Source of the DNA: a virus
Lineage: Duplodnaviria; Caudoviricetes
Strand: one strand, 5' to 3'
IMG/VR virus record: IMGVR_UViG_3300020042_010754
Span: 1-50,343 of that record
Length of the DNA: 50,343 bases
In this document: piece after piece, positions 23,202 through 36,915 of the stretch
Position numbering within the stretch: position 1 is the first letter of the stretch
Layout of the letters: each line of letters opens with the position of its first letter
Position numbers and translations under genes: made by a program
The notes under the pieces: model-generated
What the model saw: only the letters and a program-made list of their open reading frames with translations
The model's database searches: none
Told to the model about the DNA's origin: nothing

Positions 23202-23984
23202 GTGAAGAAATATCTAAATCCGTATGAATTAACAATCACATTGTTTTATGTCATGACTGTGATCAGTGTGTGCCTTATGTGGTACAATAATGATCTAGTT
23301 TGGTTACTTGCAGTTCCGGTTGCGGGCTGGGTTAATCATTTTTTCTTCAGTCTCAATCATAGAATGATTTCGCATCGTGCGTTTGAGGCCAGAAACAAAT
23401 TTATACACAACCTGATCATTGTGATGAACGTGTTCCAGGTCAGTCATAGTCCTTTGAGGTTTGCAATGGTACACCGACACCATCACAGTCATGCAGATGT
23501 TCCGGGATCGGATATACACGGCCCAACTCAAGGCTTTTGGGAATCAGTAGTTGGTTGGGAATACCACCTGGGTGAGAGTGTTAAACAGCACCGCATCAAG
23601 ATCCCTAAAGATCTACTCCGAGATAAATTTTTGGTATGGTTTGATACACATTACTACAAGATATTGATTTTGACATGTGTTGCGACATACCTGATTAGTT
23701 GGCAAGCATTTTGGTATGTGCTTGTGCCAGGTAGTGTCTGGTTTAAACTGTCAGCCAATTACCTTACAAATTATCACACATCGCATTTTGGGTATACAAA
23801 TCATGATATAGGAAAAGACACTGCAAAAAACAGTATCTTTGCCAATATTTTCAACTGCGGTGAAGGTTGGCACAATAACCATCATGCAAATCCTGGTGCT
23901 TGGAGATACGGGGAAAAATGGTGGGAGTGGGATCCACCCGGGTTTGTGATCAAGCATTTCTTAAAGAAAAGAATTGCTCAATAG
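23202..23984 (+). CDS. Membrane fatty-acid (delta-9-like) desaturase
   Basis: His boxes HRMISH, HRHHH, GEGWHNNHH. Confidence 0.9.
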   Translation: MKKYLNPYELTITLFYVMTVISVCLMWYNNDLVWLLAVPVAGWVNHFFFSLNHRMISHRAFEARNKFIHNLIIVMNVFQVSHSPLRFAMVHRHHHSHADVPGSDIHGPTQGFWESVVGWEYHLGESVKQHRIKIPKDLLRDKFLVWFDTHYYKILILTCVATYLISWQAFWYVLVPGSVWFKLSANYLTNYHTSHFGYTNHDIGKDTAKNSIFANIFNCGEGWHNNHHANPGAWRYGEKWWEWDPPGFVIKHFLKKRIAQ

Positions 23985-24590: not shown

Positions 24591-24619
24591 TTGACTTTTT
24601 TGTTGTAGGCATATATACT
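24591..24619 (+). promoter_or_regulatory. sigma70 promoter of attenuator leader 1
   Basis: TTGACT-17-TATACT. Confidence 0.75.
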
Positions 24620-24624
24620 ACACT

Positions 24625-24717
24625 ATGATGACGCAAATTGCACTCACACTCAATCTAATACCTACCAGCCTGGAGCTGGCCTATGAGAGCGATCGTCGGC
24701 GGGGTCTTTGCCTGTAA
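24625..24717 (+). CDS. Putative leader peptide 1 (MMTQIALTLNLIPTSLELAYESDRRRGLCL)
   Basis: Leaderless ATGATG at the predicted TSS; overlaps the antiterminator arm. Confidence 0.6.
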   Translation: MMTQIALTLNLIPTSLELAYESDRRRGLCL

Positions 24718-24741
24718 GTAAACTTATTACTTCACTCAAAG

Positions 24742-24766
24742 ACCCGCTAACTAGGCGGGTTTTTTT
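24742..24766 (+). terminator. Intrinsic terminator with competing antiterminator
   Basis: ACCCGC/GCGGGT + T run; GGGTCTTTG (24702) pairs with CAAAGACCC (24737). Confidence 0.85.
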
Positions 24767-24773
24767 ATGGCGG

Positions 24774-24902
24774 TTGACCCTTATTCAGTCTGGTGCTATA
24801 ATGCATGCAACAAAGAGGAGAGCAGCAGGATTTGCAAAGACCCTAGAACAAACTGGGGCATTTGCAAAACCGGTTGACCAGTATTGCACAAGATGTTATA
24901 CT
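24774..24902 (+). promoter_or_regulatory. Tandem sigma70 promoters for the RNA island
   Basis: TTGACC-17-TATAAT (24774) and TTGACC-17-TATACT (24874). Confidence 0.75.
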
Positions 24903-24993
24903 AGAGACTAGTTAGAAAGCAGCACAGTGCATCGACACAGTGCAGCAAGTTCGTTAAAAATTTGATTATGGTGTACTCAGATTCAGTTCTGAG

Positions 24994-25242
24994 CACTATA
25001 TGTAAACACATTAGGGTTACCAAGCCAGTAGGTGACCTAGCAATGGATTCCAGTTGACGGACTGGCATTGGCTAGGTGACACGAAAGATGGGCGTATCAG
25101 TGATGCAAATCACGAGTTACGGTAGTCACGCTGGAACAACTTGACCTGTAATGTGCTTGATAGACAAGTCCGTGGACGGCACGGTAGGGCAGGTTCAAAA
25201 CTGCGATCTCTATCAAACACCCCTGTGTGTTTTCATATAGTG
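24994..25242 (+). ncRNA. Conserved-stem spacer RNA, copy A (about 200-nt multi-stem cargo)
   Basis: CACTATATGTAAACACATTAGGG...CCCTGTGTGTTTTCATATAGTG. Confidence 0.7.
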
Positions 25243-25316
25243 GAGCATTCGTCTATCGGTTAGGACAGTGGGTTTTCAGTCCACTAAGAGCGGTTCGACT
25301 CCGCTATGCTCTACCA
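25242..25316 (+). tRNA. tRNA-Glu (TTC)
   Basis: Cloverleaf, CCA. Confidence 0.92.
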
Positions 25317-25322
25317 TGTTTA

Positions 25323-25408
25323 GGACAGTTGGCCGAGTGGTCGAAGGCGACGGACTGTAAATCCGTTCTGTAAAAAGCGCAGTGGTTCAAATCCATTACT
25401 GTCCACCA
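25323..25408 (+). tRNA. tRNA-Tyr (GTA)
   Basis: Cloverleaf, long variable arm, CCA. Confidence 0.95.
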
Positions 25409-25413
25409 ATTTT

Positions 25414-25549
25414 GAAATCAAGTGGAAAGCAAGAGCCACAAAGTAAACAGTAGGCGACTTAGGTATCACGGTCGTCTTTGCAGTGATCAACTGCGTCAGC
25501 CCCAAAAAGGTTGAGAAACACTGGGGTAAGAGTCCCAAAGTGATTGCCA
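25414..25549 (+). ncRNA. tRNA-like multi-hairpin RNA ending in GCCA
   Basis: Five hairpins, including anticodon-like CAGCC-CCAAAAA-GGTTG and T-like TGGG-GTAAGAGT-CCCA. Confidence 0.5.
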
Positions 25550-25624
25550 TATACGAACACATTGAGAGACACATCCGCCGTAAAACGTGGAAGCATGGTG
25601 GTTATCCAGTGTGTTCTTATATGG
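25547..25624 (+). ncRNA. Conserved-stem spacer RNA, copy B
   Basis: CCATATACGAACACATTG...CAGTGTGTTCTTATATGG. Confidence 0.7.
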
Positions 25625-25794
25625 TATATCAGTTGATGTAGCGGGTCATACACGGGACTGGCGAAAGCATATTGAGGCTCGGAATCTCGGACGCTAACAA
25701 CACATCAGCACAAAGGTAGTTCGAACTACTCGGCGTGGTCGCAGTCTGTACTACGGACTTTCCTGCTCGATCCAGGGTGCTGATGGATATACCA
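25623..25794 (+). ncRNA. Unknown structured RNA closed by GGTATATC/GATATACC
   Basis: Terminal stem, T-loop-like GGTAGTTCGAACTACT, alternative internal pairings. Confidence 0.55.
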
Positions 25795-25914
25795 TATAGA
25801 AACACATTAATTGAAAAGCGTCCATGGACTAGAATGACCATCTAGTTAGATGCTTGGATAGGGATGTAAAAAGCCCCTGCTCGTCACAGTTGTCCTAGTG
25901 TGTTTCTATATGGT
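25791..25914 (+). ncRNA. Conserved-stem spacer RNA, copy C
   Basis: ACCATATAGAAACACATTA...TAGTGTGTTTCTATATGGT. Confidence 0.72.
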
Positions 25915-25961
25915 AATGTCATCGGCCGGTGGCATCCATTCTGGGGAGTAATTACCCTCAG

Positions 25962-26039
25962 GAACTCGCGGTCTTCTAGTGGTAAGAAAGCCTCGTTTAA
26001 GGGGCGAACGCAGGTTCGATTCCTGCCCGCAATGAGTTT
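25962..26039 (+). ncRNA. tRNA-like element without CCA (pseudo-tRNA or decoy)
   Basis: D arm TTCT-AGTGGTA-AGAA, 6-nt anticodon loop GTTTAA, perfect T arm GCAGG-TTCGATT-CCTGC, bulged acceptor. Confidence 0.6.
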
Positions 26040-26124
26040 GCTATATAAAAACACATTAGAAGCCTTCGTGACTGTAGGCAAGCAGGTCTCTAAGTCGTTT
26101 CCGACTAGTGTGTTTCTATATGGT
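26040..26124 (+). ncRNA. Conserved-stem spacer RNA, copy D
   Basis: GCTATATAAAAACACATTAG...CTAGTGTGTTTCTATATGGT. Confidence 0.72.
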
Positions 26125-26313
26125 AAGAATCCCGTTACTACTTTCGTTAAAGTAGCGTTTGACTAGCGATAGAGGTCCGGTGGCAGAAGACCGTTAGTGA
26201 GGAGAACCCTCTGAATCTGATAGGCAGTTCCCTCTGCACACAGACGTTAGAATAAAAGGGATGGACAGAGTAACTGCTCAATTAAGGGCTGGCGTGGAAC
26301 CCAGTAGCTTATC
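26122..26313 (+). ncRNA. Unknown structured RNA
   Basis: GGTAAG/CTTATC, ATCCC/GGGAT, CTACTTT/AAAGTAG and further hairpins; no credible ORF. Confidence 0.5.
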
Positions 26314-26320
26314 CTAATTT

Positions 26321-26396
26321 GGTCTTAAAGTGTTCATGGACGCACGACGGCTTGTCACGCCGTAAGAGTGGGGATCGTTACCCCCTAAGACCGCCA
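26321..26396 (+). tRNA. tRNA-Asp (GTC)
   Basis: Cloverleaf, atypical T loop ATCGTTA, CCA. Confidence 0.9.
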
Positions 26397-26460
26397 TATA
26401 AAACACATTAGTTCCCCGTAGGGATAATTGACAACAGGTTCATGCTAGTGTGTTTCTATG
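26395..26460 (+). ncRNA. Conserved-stem spacer RNA, copy E
   Basis: CATATAAAACACATTAG...CTAGTGTGTTTCTATG, exactly between tRNA-Asp and tRNA-Leu. Confidence 0.72.
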
Positions 26461-26535
26461 CCCCGGTGACGGAATGGTATACGTGTTGGTCTTAGAAACC
26501 AAATTCTGGGAGTTCGAGTCTCCCCTGGGGCACCA
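26460..26535 (+). tRNA. tRNA-Leu (TAG), short variable loop
   Basis: Cloverleaf, loop CTTAGAA, CCA. Confidence 0.9.
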
Positions 26536-26538
26536 AGT

Positions 26539-26758
26539 TTTGTTAGAGTGTTAGCAAGAGAAAGTCACGCTGTCTAGGTTTCTTCGAAGGACCAAAGCAG
26601 TAGAAGGTGATGGGTTCGACACCCACCCTGCGGGGAACTGCAGGGGTCCATTGAGGCGACTAAACTGGACCGGTATCCCAAGTAACTTACCGACTCCCGC
26701 TCGAGCTTGTTAATTCGGGTGAATGGCAGCAATAACGTGGTGCTGCTACTTTAACAAA
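26539..26758 (+). ncRNA. Unknown multi-stem RNA
   Basis: TTTGTTAGAGT/ACTTTAACAAA closing stem; internal GGGTTCGACACCC, GGTCCA/TGGACC, CGGTA/TACCG. Confidence 0.6.
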
Positions 26759-26769
26759 TTCAATATTTT

Positions 26770-26929
26770 ATTTTTATAGTCAAGCATCAATAAAGGTATC
26801 GTGACGGGACGCTGCCACTATGCGGGCCTAACTGTGCGAGGAACAGGTCCTGATATAACTGCTATTCGCTTGTCAGAGGAAGCACCTTTGTTGACAAATT
26901 GGCATCTCTTGATGCTTGACTATAAAAAT
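26770..26929 (+). ncRNA. Unknown RNA closed by a perfect 21-bp stem
   Basis: ATTTTTATAGTCAAGCATCAA/TTGATGCTTGACTATAAAAAT. Confidence 0.65.
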
Positions 26930-26933
26930 TTTT

Positions 26934-27023
26934 GCCAGCGAGACTTGGAGTCCGAGGGGTCTTATATGCCCTTTCCGCCAGATTAGCGGCTTTGAGAGAG
27001 TTCGATTCTCTCCGCTGGTACCA
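26934..27023 (+). tRNA. Atypical tRNA-Ile (TAT) with long variable arm and reduced D arm
   Basis: GCCAGCG/CGCTGGT, loop CTTATAT, T arm GAGAG-TTCGATT-CTCTC, ACCA. Confidence 0.8.
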
Positions 27024-27026
27024 GTT

Positions 27027-27197
27027 TAAGCAGATCATGTGGCGGAAAAACTCATTGACGATGGGCCCAACTGCCAGGGACAACGACACAATCCTGAACC
27101 GCTGACGTTGAAAAATACGAGACTGCTAGTCACAGTCGACTCATGTTCGGGAAGGTGGCAACACCTTTAAACGCAGGGCAGTCACATGATCAGCTTA
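27027..27197 (+). ncRNA. Unknown structured RNA
   Basis: TAAGC-A-GATCATGTGGC/GTCACATGATC-A-GCTTA closing stem; CCTGAAC/GTTCGGG. Confidence 0.55.
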
Positions 27198-27208
27198 TTC
27201 AAACTCAG

Positions 27209-27248
27209 TTGACAACAACCCAACGTTGTTGTACACTACACATAAATA
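27209..27248 (+). promoter_or_regulatory. sigma70 promoter plus CATAAATA late box
   Basis: TTGACA-17-TACACT. Confidence 0.7.
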
Positions 27249-27254
27249 ACATAT

Positions 27255-27330
27255 CGCGGGAAGGGTCCGGTCACCGGCAGGGTCTCATAAGCCTTTGCAA
27301 TCCTTGGTTCAAATCCAAGTCCCGCAACCA
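27255..27330 (+). tRNA. tRNA-fMet-like (CAT)
   Basis: C1:A72 mismatch, CGCGGG start, TTCAAAT T loop, reduced D arm. Confidence 0.82.
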
Positions 27331-27339
27331 AACACATCC

Positions 27340-27960
27340 ATGGTACCCAAAGTAATCAGAATTACACCAGTAGAATCCTATTTTTCAATTACCTGGGCAA
27401 TAACCAACAAGTGCAATTATGATTGCATGTATTGCCCTGCTGCATTGCATGCAGGGGATCAAGTGTACTCACTGAGCAAGATGCAATCCTACTGGTTGGA
27501 TATTTTTGCCAAGACTCAAGATAAAAATTTAAAATACAAAATTTCGTTCAGTGGCGGCGAAGTCACTACCAACAAAGACTTTGCGCCATTTGTTGCATGG
27601 TTGCGTGAAAACTACCATGATCGCATACATTCTATATTGTTAACTACCAATGGTAGTGCCAGCGTGGCCTACTACATGAAGTTGTACCACAGTGTAGACA
27701 ACATAAGTTTTAGTTTTCACAGTGAACATGCTGATGAAAAACTATTTTATGATAAAATGGTCAAGATCAAGGAAGCCATTGATCCTAAAAATTTCATTCA
27801 TGTAAACATCATGGACGAATACTGGATCAAGGATCGTATTCCTTTGTATACTAAAATTCTAACTGACCATGAGATCAGTCATAGCATTAATTCAATAAAT
27901 TATGCCTTAGGAACACGGACTGTTCCTATTCTTAAAGGTCGGGCTAATCTTGAAATTTGA
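27340..27960 (+). CDS. Radical SAM protein
   Basis: CNYDCMYC, SGGE, TTNGS, SFH. Confidence 0.88.
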   Translation: MVPKVIRITPVESYFSITWAITNKCNYDCMYCPAALHAGDQVYSLSKMQSYWLDIFAKTQDKNLKYKISFSGGEVTTNKDFAPFVAWLRENYHDRIHSILLTTNGSASVAYYMKLYHSVDNISFSFHSEHADEKLFYDKMVKIKEAIDPKNFIHVNIMDEYWIKDRIPLYTKILTDHEISHSINSINYALGTRTVPILKGRANLEI

Positions 27961-28258
27961 AAACCATCACAACAACAATTGCACAATTTTGCTAGACAAC
28001 GGTGACCAGTATCAGATATATGCCAATTGGTTGCACAATCACAATCTAGATAATTTTAAAGGCTGGCAATGTGCTGCAGGAATCACACGAATCTCTATTG
28101 ATCCTACTGGACAAGTGTTCAGTGGCGAATGCGAAAATCACAATTTAGGTAACTTGAATACCAATTGGCAGTTGTTGGAAGAATCAGTTGCTGTTTGCAA
28201 CCGAGACCGGTGCACTGGTTGCACTGACGACTTACTTGCCAAAAAAATTAAATTATGA
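27950..28258 (+). CDS. Stand-alone SPASM/twitch-like Fe-S domain protein
   Basis: CAAG...I...GQV..GEC....LGNL...C...RCTGCTDD. Confidence 0.7.
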   Translation: MKFENHHNNNCTILLDNGDQYQIYANWLHNHNLDNFKGWQCAAGITRISIDPTGQVFSGECENHNLGNLNTNWQLLEESVAVCNRDRCTGCTDDLLAKKIKL

Positions 28259-28352: not shown

Positions 28353-28381
28353 TTGACAACAATCACTAAATACCTTATAAT
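28353..28381 (+). promoter_or_regulatory. Consensus sigma70 promoter of attenuator leader 2
   Basis: TTGACA-17-TATAAT with CTAAATA inside. Confidence 0.85.
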
Positions 28382-28387
28382 ACAAAC

Positions 28388-28519
28388 ATGATGAACACAA
28401 ACACTTTTAACCGCATGCATTCCGTACCGACCTTGGCACAGCCCTGGTCACGTGCCTTTGCCTGCGGCAAAAGTATTACAGGGAATCATAGGGTCCGAGA
28501 AGGAATCAGTTGCGCCTAA
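28388..28519 (+). CDS. Putative leader peptide 2 (MMNTNTFNRMHSVPTLAQPWSRAFACGKSITGNHRVREGISCA)
   Basis: Leaderless ATGATG at the predicted TSS; overlaps the antiterminator. Confidence 0.6.
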   Translation: MMNTNTFNRMHSVPTLAQPWSRAFACGKSITGNHRVREGISCA

Positions 28520-28544
28520 CAGCAGTAACTTACAAACTTCAAGG

Positions 28545-28577
28545 ACCCTGGAACTAAAAACTCCAGGGTTTTTCTTT
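28545..28577 (+). terminator. Intrinsic terminator with competing antiterminator
   Basis: ACCCTGGA/TCCAGGGT + TTTTCTTT; AGGGTCC (28490) pairs with GGACCCT (28543). Confidence 0.85.
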
Positions 28578-28585
28578 ATGTGCAA

Positions 28586-28720
28586 TGAGTAACGAGGACT
28601 CAGCCAGCACAATAAACCAGGCAAACGGGCGGACAGGACACATGAACGTGTGGCGATAACACACTAGTAAGACTCCTGGTCGGGGTATCAACCCCGTCAT
28701 GTTCAGTAGCGATACTGGGC
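28586..28720 (+). ncRNA. Unknown structured RNA after attenuator 2
   Basis: GAGT/ACTC, CAGGA/TCCTG or ACCAGG/CCTGGT, GTGT/ACAC, CGGGG/CCCCG, TTCAGT/ACTGGG stems. Confidence 0.5.
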
Positions 28721-28780
28721 ATTCTAAAACATATCAAGCTGGCCTGGGTTGCAATACCGCAGATGGTGTGTTTTAGAATG
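28720..28780 (+). ncRNA. Conserved-stem spacer RNA, copy F (divergent)
   Basis: CATTCTAAAACATAT...GTGTGTTTTAGAATG with compensatory changes. Confidence 0.62.
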
Positions 28781-28853
28781 TATCCATAGTGTAATGGCAG
28801 CATCGCGGTCTCCAAAACCGTCAGTCTAGGTTCAAGTCCTAGTGGGTACGCCA
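28780..28853 (+). tRNA. tRNA-Trp (CCA)
   Basis: Cloverleaf, loop CTCCAAA. Confidence 0.93.
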
Positions 28854-28858
28854 AATAT

Positions 28859-28935
28859 CGGTCCTTAACTCAATTGAATAGAGTGCCAGTCTTCGAAACT
28901 GGAAGTTGGGAGTTTGAATCTCTCAGGGCCGGCCA
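28859..28935 (+). tRNA. tRNA-Arg (TCG)
   Basis: Cloverleaf, loop CTTCGAA. Confidence 0.92.
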
Positions 28936-28942
28936 AATTATC

Positions 28943-29016
28943 GGGGGATTAGTATAATGGGATTACGGCAGCTTTGCAAGCTGTTTATGGGAGTTCGATC
29001 CTCCCATCCTCCACCA
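28943..29016 (+). tRNA. tRNA-Ala (TGC)
   Basis: Cloverleaf, G3:U70. Confidence 0.95.
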
Positions 29017-29023
29017 AATTTAC

Positions 29024-29097
29024 TGGGGGTTAGTGTAGCGGTAACACTACAGACTTTGACTCTGTCATCACTGGTTCGATCCCAGTACCCTCTGCCA
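29024..29097 (+). tRNA. tRNA-Gln (TTG)
   Basis: Cloverleaf, loop CTTTGAC. Confidence 0.93.
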
Positions 29098-29104
29098 GAC
29101 AAAT

Positions 29105-29178
29105 ACCACGTTAGCTCAAAGGTAGAGCAATCGGCTGATAACCGATAGACACAGGATCGTTACCTGTACATGGTACCA
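29105..29178 (+). tRNA. tRNA-Ile (GAT)
   Basis: Cloverleaf, atypical T loop ATCGTTA. Confidence 0.9.
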
Positions 29179-29184
29179 AATTGT

Positions 29185-29214
29185 GTTGACACTGTGTGTC
29201 AACTGCTATATAAT
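29185..29214 (+). promoter_or_regulatory. sigma70 promoter overlapped by a palindrome
   Basis: TTGACA-17-TATAAT; GTTGACAC-TGT-GTGTCAAC. Confidence 0.75.
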
Positions 29215-29230
29215 AGCATTGTTAGTTTCA

Positions 29231-29320
29231 GGAACGGTCCCATAATGGTATTGGAGCGGATTGCTAATCCGTCGAGTGGTGAAAGCCGCTTTAAGAGTTC
29301 GAGTCTCTTTCGTTCCGCCA
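29231..29320 (+). tRNA. tRNA-Ser (GCT)
   Basis: Cloverleaf, long variable arm. Confidence 0.94.
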
Positions 29321-29328
29321 AGTTTTAT

Positions 29329-29404
29329 TCCTCAGTAGCACAGCGGTAGTTGCACTTGACTGTTAATCAAGGTGTCGGTAGTTCGATCCTACCCTGAGGA
29401 GCCA
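29329..29404 (+). tRNA. tRNA-Asn (GTT)
   Basis: Cloverleaf. Confidence 0.94.
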
Positions 29405-29410
29405 ATTTTT

Positions 29411-29484
29411 GCCCTACTAGTACAATGGCAGTACACTGGTTTTGTAATCCTGTGATGGCAGTTCGATTCTGTCGTGGGGCACCA
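29411..29484 (+). tRNA. tRNA-Thr (TGT)
   Basis: Cloverleaf; two U:U mismatches in the anticodon stem. Confidence 0.85.
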
Positions 29485-29487
29485 TTT

Positions 29488-30252
29488 TTATCCCGCAGTA
29501 GTGCGTTGATTATTGTGCATTAATAATTTTTCAACAATTACGGCACCCAGATCAAATCTTGTACCTCCAGAGAATGAATAGTTTGTTTGATCTTCGTGAT
29601 GATTTTTATGCAAACCTTCCCCGTAAGATATAAAATTAAATACTGAGTTCAAGTTCCTGGCTTCAACAACTTCATTCTTTTTGTGGGTGTTATAGTTCAC
29701 AGCAGTAATAATTATCCAGCTATACGCAAAATTTACTGGAGAAAAAAACAATGCTGTTTTCAAGTCAATCAACGCCAATATTATATTGAAAGCGTAGAAC
29801 AACTTCCAGTAGTGTTTGCTAACAAATACAGCTTCTTTATTTTTGAAAAAATCCTTGGGAATCTTGATTCCCGAATTGATAGTATACCTGCCCAGCCACA
29901 AACTAAACCAACTATGATACATAGGGCTGTGTGGATCATTTTTTGTGTCAGTATGTGCATGATGCAAACGATGTGCAATCACTATTTGTAATGGACTGCC
30001 GTGACCGTTCATTACCATGCCAGTAAGCATGAGATATTTTCCAAAAATACTGGGCTTAAAACTGTTGTGACAAAGCCACCGGTGAGATCCAATGTGCGCT
30101 ATACCGCCCATCAAAGACCCAATGACTCTGATTAGGATAAATCCTAGCAGTGTTCCGCCTGCCGAAAAATAATAAGGTATTGAAAAAACAGCAATGGCGC
30201 TGAATACTAGAACTTTCAAAGTTACAGTGTCGGTGTAGGATAATTTGAACAT
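29488..30252 (-). CDS. Membrane fatty-acid desaturase
   Basis: HRWLCH, HRLHH, GEGLHKNHH. Confidence 0.9.
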   Translation of the reverse strand: MFKLSYTDTVTLKVLVFSAIAVFSIPYYFSAGGTLLGFILIRVIGSLMGGIAHIGSHRWLCHNSFKPSIFGKYLMLTGMVMNGHGSPLQIVIAHRLHHAHTDTKNDPHSPMYHSWFSLWLGRYTINSGIKIPKDFFKNKEAVFVSKHYWKLFYAFNIILALIDLKTALFFSPVNFAYSWIIITAVNYNTHKKNEVVEARNLNSVFNFISYGEGLHKNHHEDQTNYSFSGGTRFDLGAVIVEKLLMHNNQRTTAG

Positions 30253-30298
30253 AACTGTATTTAATCAATGTTATTGACTCAATATTGTTAATCAACAG

Positions 30299-30327
30299 TT
30301 GACAACATTCTGAAATTGTTGTACAAT
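30299..30327 (+). promoter_or_regulatory. sigma70 promoter of the Lys tRNA group
   Basis: TTGACA-17-TACAAT. Confidence 0.8.
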
Positions 30328-30352
30328 ACAAACTTAAACAAAAAGGTACTAT

Positions 30353-30376
30353 ATGAAGCGACCAGCTAAACTGTAG
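30353..30376 (+). CDS. Putative mini leader peptide MKRPAKL
   Basis: AAAGGT RBS; AAG and AAA Lys codons; hairpin starts at the stop codon. Confidence 0.45.
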   Translation: MKRPAKL

Positions 30377-30436
30377 TGTCAATCTAGATCCCATGTAGGT
30401 CCGGGTTGGCACGTGAAAGACAATTTTACATATCAA

Positions 30437-30511
30437 CCCTCTAAGATGTTAAGGCAGCATGCCGGACTCTTAATCCGTGACGTCCGAGTTCAAATCTCGG
30501 TGGAGGGACCA
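30437..30511 (+). tRNA. tRNA-Lys (CTT)
   Basis: Cloverleaf, loop CTCTTAA. Confidence 0.9.
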
Positions 30512-30515
30512 CAAT

Positions 30516-30589
30516 GGGATCGTAACTTAAAAGTAAAGTAGCTGGCTTTTAACCAGTAAAAGAAGGGGCAGTACCTTCCGGTCCTACCA
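30516..30589 (+). tRNA. tRNA-Lys (TTT), atypical D and T loops
   Basis: Loop CTTTTAA; T loop GGCAGTA; no GG in D loop. Confidence 0.85.
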
Positions 30590-30664
30590 TAGATAAACAC
30601 ATTGGGATTAAATTCTGGTCACCCCAGCGCATAAGAGGTTGCGTACAGTGTGTTTTTCTATGGT
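30586..30664 (+). ncRNA. Conserved-stem spacer RNA, copy G
   Basis: ACCATAGATAAACACATTG...CAGTGTGTTTTTCTATGGT between tRNA-Lys and tRNA-His. Confidence 0.7.
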
Positions 30665-30738
30665 GTAGTTAGTGTCAGCGGTTAGCACTACGGATTGTGA
30701 TTCCGTCAGCATGGATTCGAATTCCATACTATACCCCA
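30662..30738 (+). tRNA. tRNA-His (GTG)
   Basis: Cloverleaf, G-1:C73. Confidence 0.93.
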
Positions 30739-30744
30739 GAATCA

Positions 30745-30819
30745 GGTTGTGTGGCGTAGACGGATGCGCACCGGCTTCATAAGCCGAGGAGGAAGGATCG
30801 ATACCTTCCACAACCACCA
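30745..30819 (+). tRNA. tRNA-Met (CAT), elongator-like
   Basis: Cloverleaf, T loop ATCGATA. Confidence 0.88.
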
Positions 30820-30998
30820 GTTAAATATTTTTAATGAAAGTCATTGCTGTTTTGATGTTGTTGAAAAACTTCATGGTCAATTTGAAATTGTCAATGTCAA
30901 ACACAAGAATATAAAAAGTGTGTTCTTTGCTCATGGACAAGTGGATTAATAATCCAGTCTTGGTGATAGCATTGTAAATATACATGAACGTATTTAAT

Positions 30999-31072
30999 GC
31001 GGGGTTCGTATAGTGGTAATACCTTAGCCTTCCAAGCTAAAGCGAGGAGTTCGATTCTCCTACCCCGCTCCA
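30999..31072 (+). tRNA. tRNA-Gly (TCC)
   Basis: Cloverleaf, U73. Confidence 0.95.
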
Positions 31073-31078
31073 CATTTT

Positions 31079-31153
31079 GCATCCTTAGCTCAGGGGTAGA
31101 GCGTTTCCTTTACACGGAAAGGGTCCGCGGTTCGAAACCGTGAGGATGTACCA
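31079..31153 (+). tRNA. tRNA-Val (TAC)
   Basis: Cloverleaf. Confidence 0.94.
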
Positions 31154-31156
31154 AGT

Positions 31157-31279
31157 TTTGTAGCCATAGCCCGGAGCTAGGGTAAAGGGTGTTGCGGGGA
31201 TTGCATGCGCTGCCTGTATCATGTGAACCGATAAAGATCGTAGCGCAACTTAATCAGTTTTTGTTCGGCCTGCTACAAA
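31157..31279 (+). ncRNA. Unknown rod-like RNA with central bubble
   Basis: TTTGTAGC/GCTACAAA outer stem, GTTGCG/CGCAAC inner stem. Confidence 0.5.
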
Positions 31280-31288
31280 TTCAATTTT

Positions 31289-31362
31289 CTCAGTATGGTG
31301 AAATGGTATCACTCTTGGTTTGGGACCAAGGAGCGTAGGTTCGATTCCTGCTACCGAGACCA
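31289..31362 (+). tRNA. tRNA-Pro (TGG)
   Basis: Cloverleaf. Confidence 0.92.
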
Positions 31363-31368
31363 AGTTAT

Positions 31369-31446
31369 GCACAGGTGGCGGAGCGGCCCAACGCAAGGGA
31401 TTGCAAATCCCTAACACCGTGAGTTCAAATCTCACCCTGTGCTCCA
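31369..31446 (+). tRNA. tRNA-Cys (GCA)
   Basis: Cloverleaf, U73. Confidence 0.92.
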
Positions 31447-31461
31447 GAATAGAAAGTGCCT

Positions 31462-31713
31462 ATGTGGGAATATGTCGTAACCTTTTTTGCTGTGTTCTTC
31501 ACAGATATCTTTTACACTTACTACCTAAAAGCAGTACAAGATGAACGTGCAATGGCTGCTAGTTTGTGGGCCACCGTGGTGTTCCTGGTGGCCTGCGTGG
31601 CAGTGATCAACTACACCACAAATTCATGGTTGCTGATTCCAGCCGGTGCAGGTGCATTTTTAGGCACCTGGGTGGGCATGCAATTGAGACGTAACAAAAA
31701 TAATGGAAGATGA
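31462..31713 (+). CDS. Small multi-TM membrane protein
   Basis: Three hydrophobic segments; stop overlaps the tRNA-Ser 5' end. Confidence 0.7.
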   Translation: MWEYVVTFFAVFFTDIFYTYYLKAVQDERAMAASLWATVVFLVACVAVINYTTNSWLLIPAGAGAFLGTWVGMQLRRNKNNGR

Positions 31714-31796
31714 TGCAGCGGGGATGGTCCTGCGACTGGCCTTGAAAACCAGGTTCTGAGAAATTGGATGGGGTTCGACTCCTCCGTCTTCCGCCA
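31705..31796 (+). tRNA. tRNA-Ser (TGA), enlarged D arm
   Basis: Loop CTTGAAA, long variable arm, GCCA. Confidence 0.88.
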
Positions 31797-31803
31797 ACAA
31801 TAT

Positions 31804-31879
31804 GCAACTTTAGCTGATGTGGTCATAGCGGTGCCCTGAAGAGGCATTGAAGCAGGTTCGATTCCTGCAGGTTGCACCA
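31804..31879 (+). tRNA. tRNA-Phe (GAA)
   Basis: Cloverleaf, loop CTGAAGA. Confidence 0.92.
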
Positions 31880-31885
31880 GTCTAA

Positions 31886-31960
31886 GTCTCCATAGTTCAA
31901 GGGATAGAACACGTTCCTCCTAAGAATGAAATACAGGTTCGAGTCCTGTTGGAGACGCCA
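31886..31960 (+). tRNA. tRNA-Arg (CCT)
   Basis: Cloverleaf. Confidence 0.93.
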
Positions 31961-32006
31961 ACCTCTCCCTGACATACGGAGTACAATGTGATAAGTTGTA
32001 TGTTTT

Positions 32007-32080
32007 GGGTCATTAGCTCAAAGGCAGAGCGCTAGGTCGACATCCTAGACACAGCGGTTCGATACCGTTATGACCTACCA
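32007..32080 (+). tRNA. tRNA-Val (GAC)
   Basis: Cloverleaf, loop TCGACAT (C33). Confidence 0.88.
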
Positions 32081-32161
32081 GCCCCAGTAGACAAATTGGC
32101 AAAGTCGTCTCTCTCAAAAGGAGAAATTTTAATGCGGGTTCGACTCCCGCCTGGGGCACCA
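32081..32161 (+). tRNA. tRNA-Leu (CAA), shortened variable region
   Basis: Loop CTCAAAA, CCA. Confidence 0.9.
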
Positions 32162-32202
32162 TTAACAAAACTGTAATAATTTTTGAGTTAAATAGAAAGC
32201 AA

Positions 32203-32676
32203 ATGATGAAAAAACTAAACATTGACCTGGTGGCAGAATTTATCCGGGCTCAAACTCCCGAAACAAAAATATATCTCGGCTGTGATAGTGAACGTGTCAA
32301 AATAGATGGCGTCTGGCATGCTGACTATGTGCTGGCTATTGTGGTGCATATCAATGGCAACAACGGCTGCAAACTGTTTGGAGAAGTACACCGCGAACGC
32401 GACTATGACTCTAAACCTGGCAAACCTGCCATGCGACTCATGACAGAAGTCTACAAGGTAAGTGAGCTGTATCTCAAACTGGCCGAAGTGCTGGAAGGCC
32501 GAGCGGTTGAAGTACACCTAGACATCAACCCCAACGAAATGCACGGTTCAAGTTGTGTGATTTCACAAGCAATTGGCTACATCAAAGGCACATGTAATGT
32601 GGTTCCTTTTGTCAAGCCCGAAGCTTTTGCTGCCAGCTATGCTGCTGACCGTTTCAGGTCACTCCAAGTAGCTTGA
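32203..32676 (+). CDS. RNase H-like YkuK/DUF458 family protein
   Basis: IYLGCDS, RLMTEV, EVHLDIN, KPEAFAASYAAD. Confidence 0.85.
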   Translation: MMKKLNIDLVAEFIRAQTPETKIYLGCDSERVKIDGVWHADYVLAIVVHINGNNGCKLFGEVHRERDYDSKPGKPAMRLMTEVYKVSELYLKLAEVLEGRAVEVHLDINPNEMHGSSCVISQAIGYIKGTCNVVPFVKPEAFAASYAADRFRSLQVA

Positions 32677-32683
32677 TAATTTT

Positions 32684-32757
32684 GCGTGGTTAGTTTAATG
32701 GTAAAATATAACGTTGCCAACGTTTTGTCAAGGGTTCGATTCCCTTACCCCGCACCA
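32684..32757 (+). tRNA. tRNA-Gly (GCC)
   Basis: Cloverleaf; A73 discriminator. Confidence 0.88.
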
Positions 32758-32767
32758 TAAAAACACG

Positions 32768-32827
32768 GCCCAGCCCTCTGGCACATGACCTCTTTTAATG
32801 TTGTGTGCTACGGCTGGGTTTTTCTTT
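32768..32827 (+). terminator. Long hairpin with U tract
   Basis: CCCAGCC...GGCTGGG + TTTTTCTTT, inner GGCACAT/GTGTGCT. Confidence 0.6.
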
Positions 32828-32828
32828 G

Positions 32829-32902
32829 GCTCTTATAGTATAACGGCAATACACGTCCTTGGTAAGGACGAGCACCAAGTTCGATTCTTGGTAAGAGCAC
32901 CA
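32829..32902 (+). tRNA. tRNA-Thr (GGT)
   Basis: Cloverleaf. Confidence 0.92.
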
Positions 32903-36297: not shown

Positions 36298-36386
36298 CTG
36301 ATCAAGAATATAAAATTGGTTTAAAAATATCAGTAATTGCTGTGGGCTTGTACCTGTTACTAGTACTTGTATGCCATACTATTTAG
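36294..36386 (+). CDS. Small single-TM protein (30 aa)
   Basis: ATGA overlap; MTDQEYKIGLKISVIAVGLYLLLVLVCHTI. Confidence 0.45.
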   Translation: MTDQEYKIGLKISVIAVGLYLLLVLVCHTI

Positions 36387-36387
36387 A

Positions 36388-36416
36388 TTGACAACAAAAT
36401 CAAATAAATATATAAT
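36388..36416 (+). promoter_or_regulatory. Consensus promoter of tmRNA
   Basis: TTGACA-17-TATAAT with ATAAATA inside. Confidence 0.85.
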
Positions 36417-36420
36417 GTAA

Positions 36421-36848
36421 GTTATTGCTGTATGAAGCAAAGAGAAAAGTGTTCTGGACGGGGGTGCGAATCCCCCCAGGTCCACCAAAAGTATTGTGAA
36501 CTGAAACAAGTAATGAACCCGAACTGTGTACAGGTAGAGGTGTAGTGAACAAAAGTAGGTGGCACAGGCTAGTACAACGGAAGAGGTGTTAAACCCGTAG
36601 ATTAAGTTCCTACGCTCTCGCTCAACCGATGCCAGTAGATCGTACCTACTATACTTTTGATGGGCCTGACCTAGATTCGACAGGGCAACAAGTAAATTAG
36701 TGGACAGCTCGGCAATGTAGAAGCCGTTAGGACAGGGGTGACCCGGTCGTAGACACAAAAAAAGTAAAAGCAAACGACTCACAGTTCGCATTAGCAGCCT
36801 AACAGCCGCTTAGGGTAGTTATACCTCGTAACAGAAAATAGCAATAGG
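36421..36848 (+). ncRNA. ssrA: Circularly permuted two-piece tmRNA, tag ANDSQFALAA
   Basis: Acceptor piece with T arm ends CAGGTCCACCA (36487). Coding piece starts GGGCCTGA..GATTCGAC (36662) with G3:U70. Tag ORF 36770-36802. Confidence 0.92.
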
Positions 36849-36872
36849 CTCTTCGGAGCCTATTTTTTTTTA
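36846..36872 (+). terminator. Intrinsic terminator
   Basis: TAGGCTC-TTCG-GAGCCTA + T run. Confidence 0.92.
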
Positions 36873-36915
36873 TTCAAGATACATCATATAAATACTTGCC
36901 TAATAGGAGAATAAC

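Follow-up and report, generated by a model that had tools for sequence, protein, structure and literature searches.

A putative ribosome-coupled attenuator ahead of a phage tRNA array, with leader codons that follow the tRNA content

Leader 2 and its predicted switch

The element at positions 28353-28577 of the window (the whole stretch of DNA analysed here, a single contig of 50,343 nt), designated leader 2, is very probably a ribosome-coupled transcription attenuator that would read the supply of charged tRNAs and induce the phage tRNA genes that follow it. Comparison with its relatives, described below, indicates that the element is real, conserved and strongly selected. The window, which presumably represents part of a large uncultured phage, contains 30 tRNA genes and a permuted tmRNA according to ARAGORN, with one extra tRNA, Lys(UUU), at 30516-30586 returned by Rfam only. 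Its 5'-3' exonuclease shares ~50% identity with the exonucleases of cultured jumbo phages (PA5oct/Paride, XaC1 and GAP32), the viral contigs that carry relatives of the leader-2 element reach 400 kb, and no capsid gene was seen within the window.

The components of leader 2 are listed in Table 1. The consensus promoter, leaderless 43-codon frame, nested antiterminator and mutually exclusive terminator that an earlier note on this DNA had described were all recovered where that note had placed them. The ATGATG at 28388 lies six bases past the -10 box, and transcription is predicted to start at, or adjoining, the A of the first ATG. Folding of 28484-28556 reproduces exactly the nested antiterminator (-27.2 kcal/mol, z -5.25, with none of 200 shuffles as good), and the terminator region 28540-28580 folds at -16.2 (z -3.48). 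Both structures use 28545-28549 and are thus mutually exclusive. The terminator was not listed by a simple terminator scan because the loop limit of that scan was 8 nt and the loop here measures 9. No promoter-like site was found on the + strand between 28382 and 29185, in agreement with the view that none other precedes 29186. Pfam returned no match for the leader ORF and Rfam no leader family for 28353-28577; a T-box riboswitch match to leader 2 was likewise absent from Rfam at the gathering threshold or at E<=5.

Table 1. Coordinates of leader 2, leader 1 and the tRNA genes behind them
Feature	Positions	Strand	Remarks
Leader 1	24591-24768	+	promoter, 30-codon leaderless ORF, antiterminator and terminator; ahead of tRNA Glu, Tyr, Asp, Leu(UAG)
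Sigma-70-type promoter of leader 2	28353-28381	+	TTGACA 28353-28358, 17-nt spacer, TATAAT 28376-28381; 12/12; conserved in relatives L258 and L272
Leaderless leader ORF	28388-28519	+	43 codons and TAA; 18 amino acids overall, without Asp and Tyr
Predicted sensing stretch, codons 1-32	28388-28483	+	17 amino acids; exactly Asp, Glu and Tyr missing
Mid-leader hairpin including the Trp codon	28403-28474	+	z -4.30
Antiterminator	28490-28549	+	AGGGTCC (28490)/GGACCCT (28543) closes GAAG (28499)/CTTC (28537) and AGTTGCGC/GC-GTAACT, in which AGTTGC (28508) pairs with GTAACT (28525) with one G-U pair; stop codon in apical loop 28516-28521
Intrinsic terminator with U-rich tail	28545-28577	+	ACCCTGGA (28545)/TCCAGGGT (28562); T tract from 28569
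Structured spacer, terminator to tRNA-Trp	28580-28779	+	z -2.80 and -3.25; no Rfam family
tRNA Trp(CCA), Arg(UCG), Ala(UGC), Gln(UUG), Ile(GAU)	28780-29178	+	no own promoter
Internal consensus promoter	29186-29214	+	12/12
Array remainder	29231-32902	+	Ser, Asn, Thr, Lys(CUU), Lys(UUU, Rfam only), His, Met, Gly, Val, Pro, Cys, Phe, Arg, Val, Leu(CAA), Gly, Thr
Second internal promoter	30299-30327	+	11/12

From these features, leader 2 would work like a leader-peptide attenuator: it combines a promoter and a short ORF with a usable start, an intrinsic terminator lying between this ORF and the target genes, a terminator-exclusive antiterminator whose 5' strand lies within the ORF, and control codons that are matched to the regulated genes and located 5' of the switch point. 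According to the mechanism proposed here, the host sigma-70 polymerase would start at the ATG, where the spacing suggests that a ribosome could load directly, and the mid-leader hairpin, a candidate polymerase pause hairpin, might then halt the polymerase for a time. Folding predicts that, when all tRNAs are charged, the ribosome would reach codons 32-42 and cover AGGGTCC, thereby allowing the terminator to form, while a stall at codons 1-31, or a failure to load, would let AGGGTCC and GGACCCT pair first and permit read-through. Fresh phage tRNAs would subsequently relieve the stall and close the loop. Read-through would presumably add to the output of the internal promoters at 29186 and 30299, and the sensing of Asp, Glu and Tyr would be delegated to leader 1, which heads those tRNAs.

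The effect of ribosome position on the fold was modelled for leader 2 and across a set of 134 leaders (see below). In the nascent transcript, with the 3' arm of the terminator not yet free, the antiterminator core was predicted to form with a probability of 1.0 when the ribosome was absent or stood at codons 1-31, and of 0.0 when it stood at codons 32-42; 132 of the 134 leaders listed behave alike at mid-leader. A ribosome placed on the antiterminator led to terminator formation in all 134 leaders listed. At equilibrium with the terminator complete, its modelled probability in the window ranged from 0.003 to 0.93 for stalls at codons 1-31, and in 19 of the 134 leaders listed it exceeded 0.9 without any ribosome. 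Furthermore, in the nascent-transcript model the antiterminator core is restored once the ribosome has advanced to codon 43 or to the stop, as observed for 55 of the 134 leaders listed. With a clean switch on the nascent transcript only, and with the core restored at these last positions, the timing of the events is decisive for the model.

The leaders that favour the terminator without a ribosome would also suit a switch that is real and of minor weight, i.e., one in which the terminator is near-constitutive or bypassed, internal promoters supply most of the tRNAs and a separate trans function falls to the leader RNA or peptide. Promoters at 29186 and 30299, and at 24774 and 24874 behind leader 1, fit this reading, as does the presence of a promoter scoring at least 11/12 before the first tRNA in 17 of 98 leaders, leader 1 among them. 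It is nevertheless very unlikely, as the first five tRNAs behind leader 2 have no other promoter, the leader match extends to tRNAs located behind internal promoters, and a trans-acting peptide would fix the places of its residues, whereas the positions of Cys, His, Phe and Tyr within the frame vary, with compensation.

Related leaders on other contigs

A scan using a terminator-only pattern returned 91 viral loci. Including the window, 74 of these 92 loci have a 30-62-codon ORF ending 20-34 nt 5' of the terminator pattern, 17 are without one and the remaining locus was too short. The antiterminator strand, which was not part of the terminator-only pattern, is present at 69 of the 74 loci with an upstream ORF (uORF) as compared to none of the 17 others, and among loci with 1.2 kb of downstream sequence tRNAs follow 49 of 55 uORF loci as compared to one of 14 others. 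Two-hairpin scans, one over 15 and one over 24 of 64 parts, were combined with a general detector (180 calls) and yielded at least 134 distinct leaders, for which a CCC terminator arm, a stop codon 20-36 nt upstream and a classed start were required, and from which the loci of a leader-1-type terminator-only scan were excluded. The latter scan returned mostly ordinary terminators, with a promoter-led uORF or a tRNA at 10 of 121 loci. A second round of scans returned 96 leaders outside the earlier 134, along with 13 pattern matches without a uORF, bringing the total to at least 230 distinct leaders; the antiterminator core was required by the two-hairpin patterns of both rounds. At loci with at least 2.5 kb of downstream sequence, a tRNA is located within 2 kb in 53 of 53 cases in the first set (among the matches listed) and in 50 of 51 in the second.

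The starts of the 134 leaders listed were classified as leaderless (58), short-UTR (23) or Shine-Dalgarno-like (53), and relatives were observed to swap leaderless and Shine-Dalgarno starts. The segment within the antiterminator that was not forced by the search patterns exhibits a median z of -2.59, with 89 of the 134 leaders listed below -2, while a control segment gave 0.38 and four leaders below -2. The leaders of all loci may have one common origin. The earlier note had argued that the different sequence and same logic of leaders 1 and 2 point to a selected function; selection is borne out by the relatives. Both leaders possess a GGGTCY/RGACCC core and are therefore not independent inventions.

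Among cultured phages, a blastn search with the element returned no match in 50,697 records, and the two-hairpin pattern was not found in the whole Paride and XaC1 records. The general detector gave no convincing call in stretches of 24-43 kb each, with arrays partly cut off, from DLP_6, BUCT-ZZ01, BUDD, DSS3P8, Paride and XaC1. In a comparison with RNA runs, the best share of the sequence words of the stretch was 0.17, with no run reaching half. Among the contigs of relatives obtained from eight RNA runs, some span the leader in X1, X4, X5 and X7, and several begin 5' of the promoter; since these contigs are those of relatives and several start from 5' of the promoter, the start, end and level of the leader transcript are not readable from them.

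Bacterial genomes were scanned in 13 of 64 parts, resulting in 120 parsed loci, of which 15 possess a uORF and three a tRNA within 2 kb, with a filter that missed GC-rich frames such as that of L517. The hairpin pattern in bacterial genomes also identified Leu-rich leaders 5' of long ORFs. L517, at 2559-2729 on the minus strand of a Planctomycetia assembly contig, is a 56-codon ORF that encodes all 20 amino acids and lies beside a kinase-like gene; it ends within a GGGGTCTG/CAGACCCC switch like that of leader 2, and 18 tRNAs follow, with the array located below 2470. On the strength of this one case, the attenuator design may extend to bacterial tRNA arrays.

Leader content and the tRNA arrays

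The earlier note had matched the codons of leader 2 to the five tRNAs directly downstream. The matching itself was upheld, and its scope proved wider: codons 1-32 encode exactly the 17 amino acids that are served by the 22 tRNAs of the whole array (28780-32902), past both internal promoters, and a match limited to five tRNAs was thus rejected. None of the 7089 32-codon windows in the window's genes holds this set of 17 amino acids. All codons named by the earlier note are present, Trp is missing from leader 1 and Tyr and Asp from leader 2, as it had reported; CGA (codon 37) and ATC (codon 40), however, lie past the predicted switch point. The same applies to Glu, which occurs in leader 2 solely at codon 38. 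The sole Leu codon of leader 2 is TTG and the sole downstream Leu tRNA has the anticodon CAA, while leader 1 uses CTN ahead of Leu(UAG).

In leader 1, Tyr-Glu-Ser-Asp is encoded immediately 5' of the switch point, and Rfam returned a sub-threshold Trp_leader match of 28 bits (cut-off 41). The split observed in the window, i.e., Asp, Glu and Tyr versus the rest, recurs in L258, L272, L254, L281 and L406. Of note, L254, L281 and L406 have extra upstream leaders rich in Tyr, Asp and Glu (plus Ser) that head Ser/Glu/Tyr/Asp tRNAs, and their partner downstream leaders are without these residues. Strong promoters at 24774 and 24874 (region 24774-24902) are located directly behind the leader-1 terminator, which they could bypass; the former is also found at +17 in L258 and L272.

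A separate observation concerns the region behind the promoter at 30299, where a Shine-Dalgarno-led 7-codon ORF (30354-30377) encoding MKRPAKL, with AAG and AAA codons, precedes tRNA-Lys(CUU) and Lys(UUU). Several relatives likewise have mini-ORFs of the MKR..K type ahead of their Lys tRNAs. No intrinsic terminator was seen at the MKRPAKL frame, which is possibly a second, Lys-specific control.

To a degree far beyond chance, leader content follows tRNA content across the relatives. Amino acids missing from a leader clashed with the tRNAs up to the next promoter in three instances as compared to 23.1 expected (42 leaders), and with the whole downstream array in seven as compared to 29.5 (23 leaders). 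When only the tRNAs behind the first internal promoter were considered, five clashes were observed and 15.7 expected (18 leaders), while residues missing from the sensing stretch were enriched among upstream tRNAs (33 of 81, with 14.3 expected). The effect was weaker without split-type and small arrays (six clashes versus 11.2 expected, P 0.001, 34 leaders), and within the split group one clash was found with 4.6 expected. A second set of 43 previously unused long arrays, 25 of them belonging to leaders seen before with 1.2-kb flanks and 18 originating from the metagenome scan, gave six clashes versus 26.0 expected, or six versus 17.6 without Asp, Glu and Tyr. The match is therefore imperfect, with six to seven clashes per set; arrays may be cut by contig ends, and some tRNAs were missed by ARAGORN. 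Sister pairs, which were drawn by leader identity and not by a genome tree, are consistent with these counts: in 24 non-overlapping pairs of the first set leader and array differ in the same direction ten times and never in the opposite one, with 13 of 23 leader differences occurring without an array difference, and in the second set the ratio was 10:1, with nine pairs uninformative. The claim of a selected, ribosome-coupled attenuator that follows its tRNAs was in this way strengthened with regard to selection and content, and its five-tRNA scope was replaced.

Many leaders resemble checklists of all amino acids. All 20 are encoded within about 45 codons in 69 of the 134 leaders listed. Among 59 distinct peptides of the first scan (L006, a gene end without antiterminator, was dropped), 25 contain all 20, while five null models gave means of 1.5-5.3 (maximum of 14 under the uniform null) and each of the two other frames yielded one of 59. 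With one peptide per 50% cluster the figure was nine of 21 as compared to 0.5-1.8 under the nulls. In the second set, no amino acid is missing from 67 of 96 leaders (nulls 4.1 and, for the uniform null, 10.5), nor from 31 of the 44 that are less than 65% identical to any earlier leader. In 68% of the 69 complete leaders listed, all 20 amino acids have been encoded by a point 6 nt or more 5' of the antiterminator, compared to 18% when shuffled. The caveat of the earlier note that a frame of this length contains many codons by chance was consequently rejected as a reading. Genome-wide codon bias was also rejected as an explanation: Asp, Glu and Tyr make up 6.3, 6.2 and 4.1% of the window's proteins, respectively, yet are missing where their tRNAs lie elsewhere.

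Comparison of close relatives indicates that selection acts on the presence of a residue and not on its position. Cys, His, Phe and Tyr shift along the frame across leaders, single-copy residues change less often than repeated ones (16.5% versus 25.4%; stratified odds ratio 0.60), and a lost single-copy residue was found at least three columns away in 134 of 194 cases, compared to 176 of 1124 when it was kept (odds ratio 12; 84 close pairs read in both directions, with 28 near-shifts set aside).

The diversity of the leaders would also be expected of a general sensor of translation speed or coupling, in which any slowing (by inhibitors, ribosome shortage or host shut-off) opens the switch and content is loosely diverse rather than matched to tRNAs. 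By its modelled geometry the switch would antiterminate upon any stall and also when initiation fails, all 20 amino acids occur in about half of the leaders listed, and codons 1-32 of leader 2 lack a standard-wobble codon for four array anticodons, namely those of Arg(UCG), Arg(CCU), Val(GAC) and Lys(CUU). We consider this explanation unlikely, as missing residues track tRNA position both within and between genomes, and codon choice also counts against it: both Ser codon boxes are used in 117 of 129 leaders (94.6 expected), both Arg boxes in 48 of 58 (25.1 expected), and Leu TTR codons accompany TTR-reading tRNAs in 26 of 28 cases as opposed to nine of 20.

Trp is the exception with regard to position, having stayed at its site in 154 of 156 close-pair comparisons. 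For the Pro-Trp (PW) region, whose conservation in relatives the earlier note had proposed to check, Trp was thus found to be fixed, and a reading as a Trp sensor was not sustained: the leader is a near-complete checklist, and in 96 of 123 family leaders the Trp codon is base-paired with RNA upstream of it. A conserved mid-leader RNA hairpin explains the fixed position better than an arrest motif, and a Trp-specific PW sensor was rejected. TnaC and ErmCL are nascent-peptide arrest sensors, and a leader of their kind would bind the exit tunnel through its Pro-Trp region and stall upon contact with a ligand. The fixed Trp and the Pro that usually precedes it agree with this alternative, which is highly improbable given that the distance from Trp to the switch varies (mostly 11-21 codons), that the Trp codon lies in an RNA hairpin with a mean pairing of 0.94 as compared to 0.72 for all G, and that leader-1 types keep the switch without Trp.

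Known attenuators, meaning and genomic setting

Among the leaders of amino-acid operons, trpL, hisL, leuL and thrL, as well as the multivalent ilvL and pheST/pheM, contain runs of one to three amino acids and control enzymes or a synthetase. Leader 2 resembles these in its short ORF, in the competition between an antiterminator and an intrinsic terminator and, by prediction, in the use of the ribosome as a readout of charged tRNA. It differs in that mostly one or two codons are present for each of 17-20 amino acids, that the antiterminator encloses the stop codon and that the output is tRNA; neither tandem cognate codons nor a match to the Rfam Trp, His, Leu, Thr or Phe models was found.

The closest tested precedent appears to be the uORF of the mycobacterial whiB7 attenuator, which, according to the available part of its description, overlaps the antiterminator, stalls to allow read-through and senses the amino acids that it encodes (PMC10274678). 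In Mycobacterium smegmatis this uORF specifies 19 of 20 amino acids, and its single Trp codon is enough for Trp to be sensed (PMC10274678). As far as that part extends, both uORFs overlap their antiterminator, and the sensing of encoded amino acids observed there is predicted for leader 2; the whiB7 uORF is, however, chromosomal, alanine-enriched and controls a transcription factor, whereas leader 2 targets phage tRNA genes, and the content of leader 2 co-varies with the tRNA inventory and is split over two leaders. Leader 2 is accordingly distinct from the whiB7/wblC uORFs in having tRNAs downstream and no enrichment of Ala, which constitutes 5.6% of residues in leaders as compared to 7.3% in the window's genes.

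The trn operon of Anabaena is likewise a long tRNA array that is kept low and switched on by translational stress, there through a protein repressor, TrcR, at the promoter, as stated in the available parts of PMC10272220 and PMC8421152; the terms 'attenuat', 'leader' and 'terminator' occur nowhere in the available text of PMC8421152. The tRNA-rich region of phage T5 counters retron-Eco7 and PrrC, with phage tRNAs replacing destroyed host tRNAs (PMC11555353), and in the portions available such rescue from tRNA-cleaving defences is put down to strong promoters (PMC11555353; also PMC12409363 and PMC12445682). T5 differs from leader 2 in this respect, and 'attenuat' is found nowhere in the available text of PMC11555353. 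A search of the open-access literature returned no paper on attenuation of tRNA genes or phage tRNA arrays.

A likely natural trigger of the predicted attenuator would be the loss of host tRNAs during infection, be it through anticodon-nuclease defences or host shut-off. Destruction of tRNA suggests itself as the signal because a leader with so few codons for each amino acid (one or two) would be suited to a severe shortage and because extra tRNA cures a shortage of tRNA, not of amino acids; starvation or ribosome inhibitors would be expected to trip the leader-2 switch too. The wider proposal, to which we give slightly better than even chances, is that large phages audit the host tRNA pool codon by codon by means of a 36-55-codon 'pangram' leader, whose list is re-edited upon each transfer of tRNA genes from one array to another. 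Cleavage of any one tRNA by an anti-phage nuclease would then stall a ribosome and induce replacement tRNAs, and bacterial tRNA arrays may have leaders of this design as well (L517). If true, this audit would turn an abortive-infection attack into its own inducer.

Such a switch would bear on the old question of whether phage tRNA arrays serve codon bias or replace destroyed host tRNAs, as an array that is opened only upon decoding failure would favour on-demand replacement, which is directly testable. The leader would then list the shortages that the phage watches, attenuation would be extended from amino-acid supply to tRNA supply, and transcription and translation would have to be coupled during infection by this group of phages. 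The element might also be turned into a compact reporter of charged-tRNA shortage that can be re-programmed, and with which the tRNAs attacked by tRNA-cleaving defences could be identified.

Several further features of the window were observed. The permuted tmRNA (36374-36893) fits the betaproteobacterial model according to both ARAGORN and Rfam, a hint of a betaproteobacterial host. The tRNA region is interrupted by a radical-SAM gene pair (27295-28258), which is missing ahead of the leader in L258, and by an antisense fatty-acid-desaturase gene (29488-30252), a second copy of which is located at 23202-23984. Long inter-tRNA spacers at 24900-27200 and 28580-28779, several of which are closed by AAACACAT...GTGTGTTT helices, had no Rfam match and are likely to be uncatalogued structured RNAs. 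Atypical tRNAs were identified at 25965-26034 and 26934-27023, one with an undetermined anticodon and one long, called as Ile(UAU), with a weak match to the tRNA-Sec model; the Rfam-only Lys(UUU) at 30516-30586 is likewise atypical. Finally, a tRNA-like gene at 27255-27331, downstream of a promoter at 27209, was missed by both ARAGORN and Rfam; it exhibits a cloverleaf fold, a CAU anticodon loop and a CCA end, directly precedes the leader in L258, and is probably an initiator-type tRNA.
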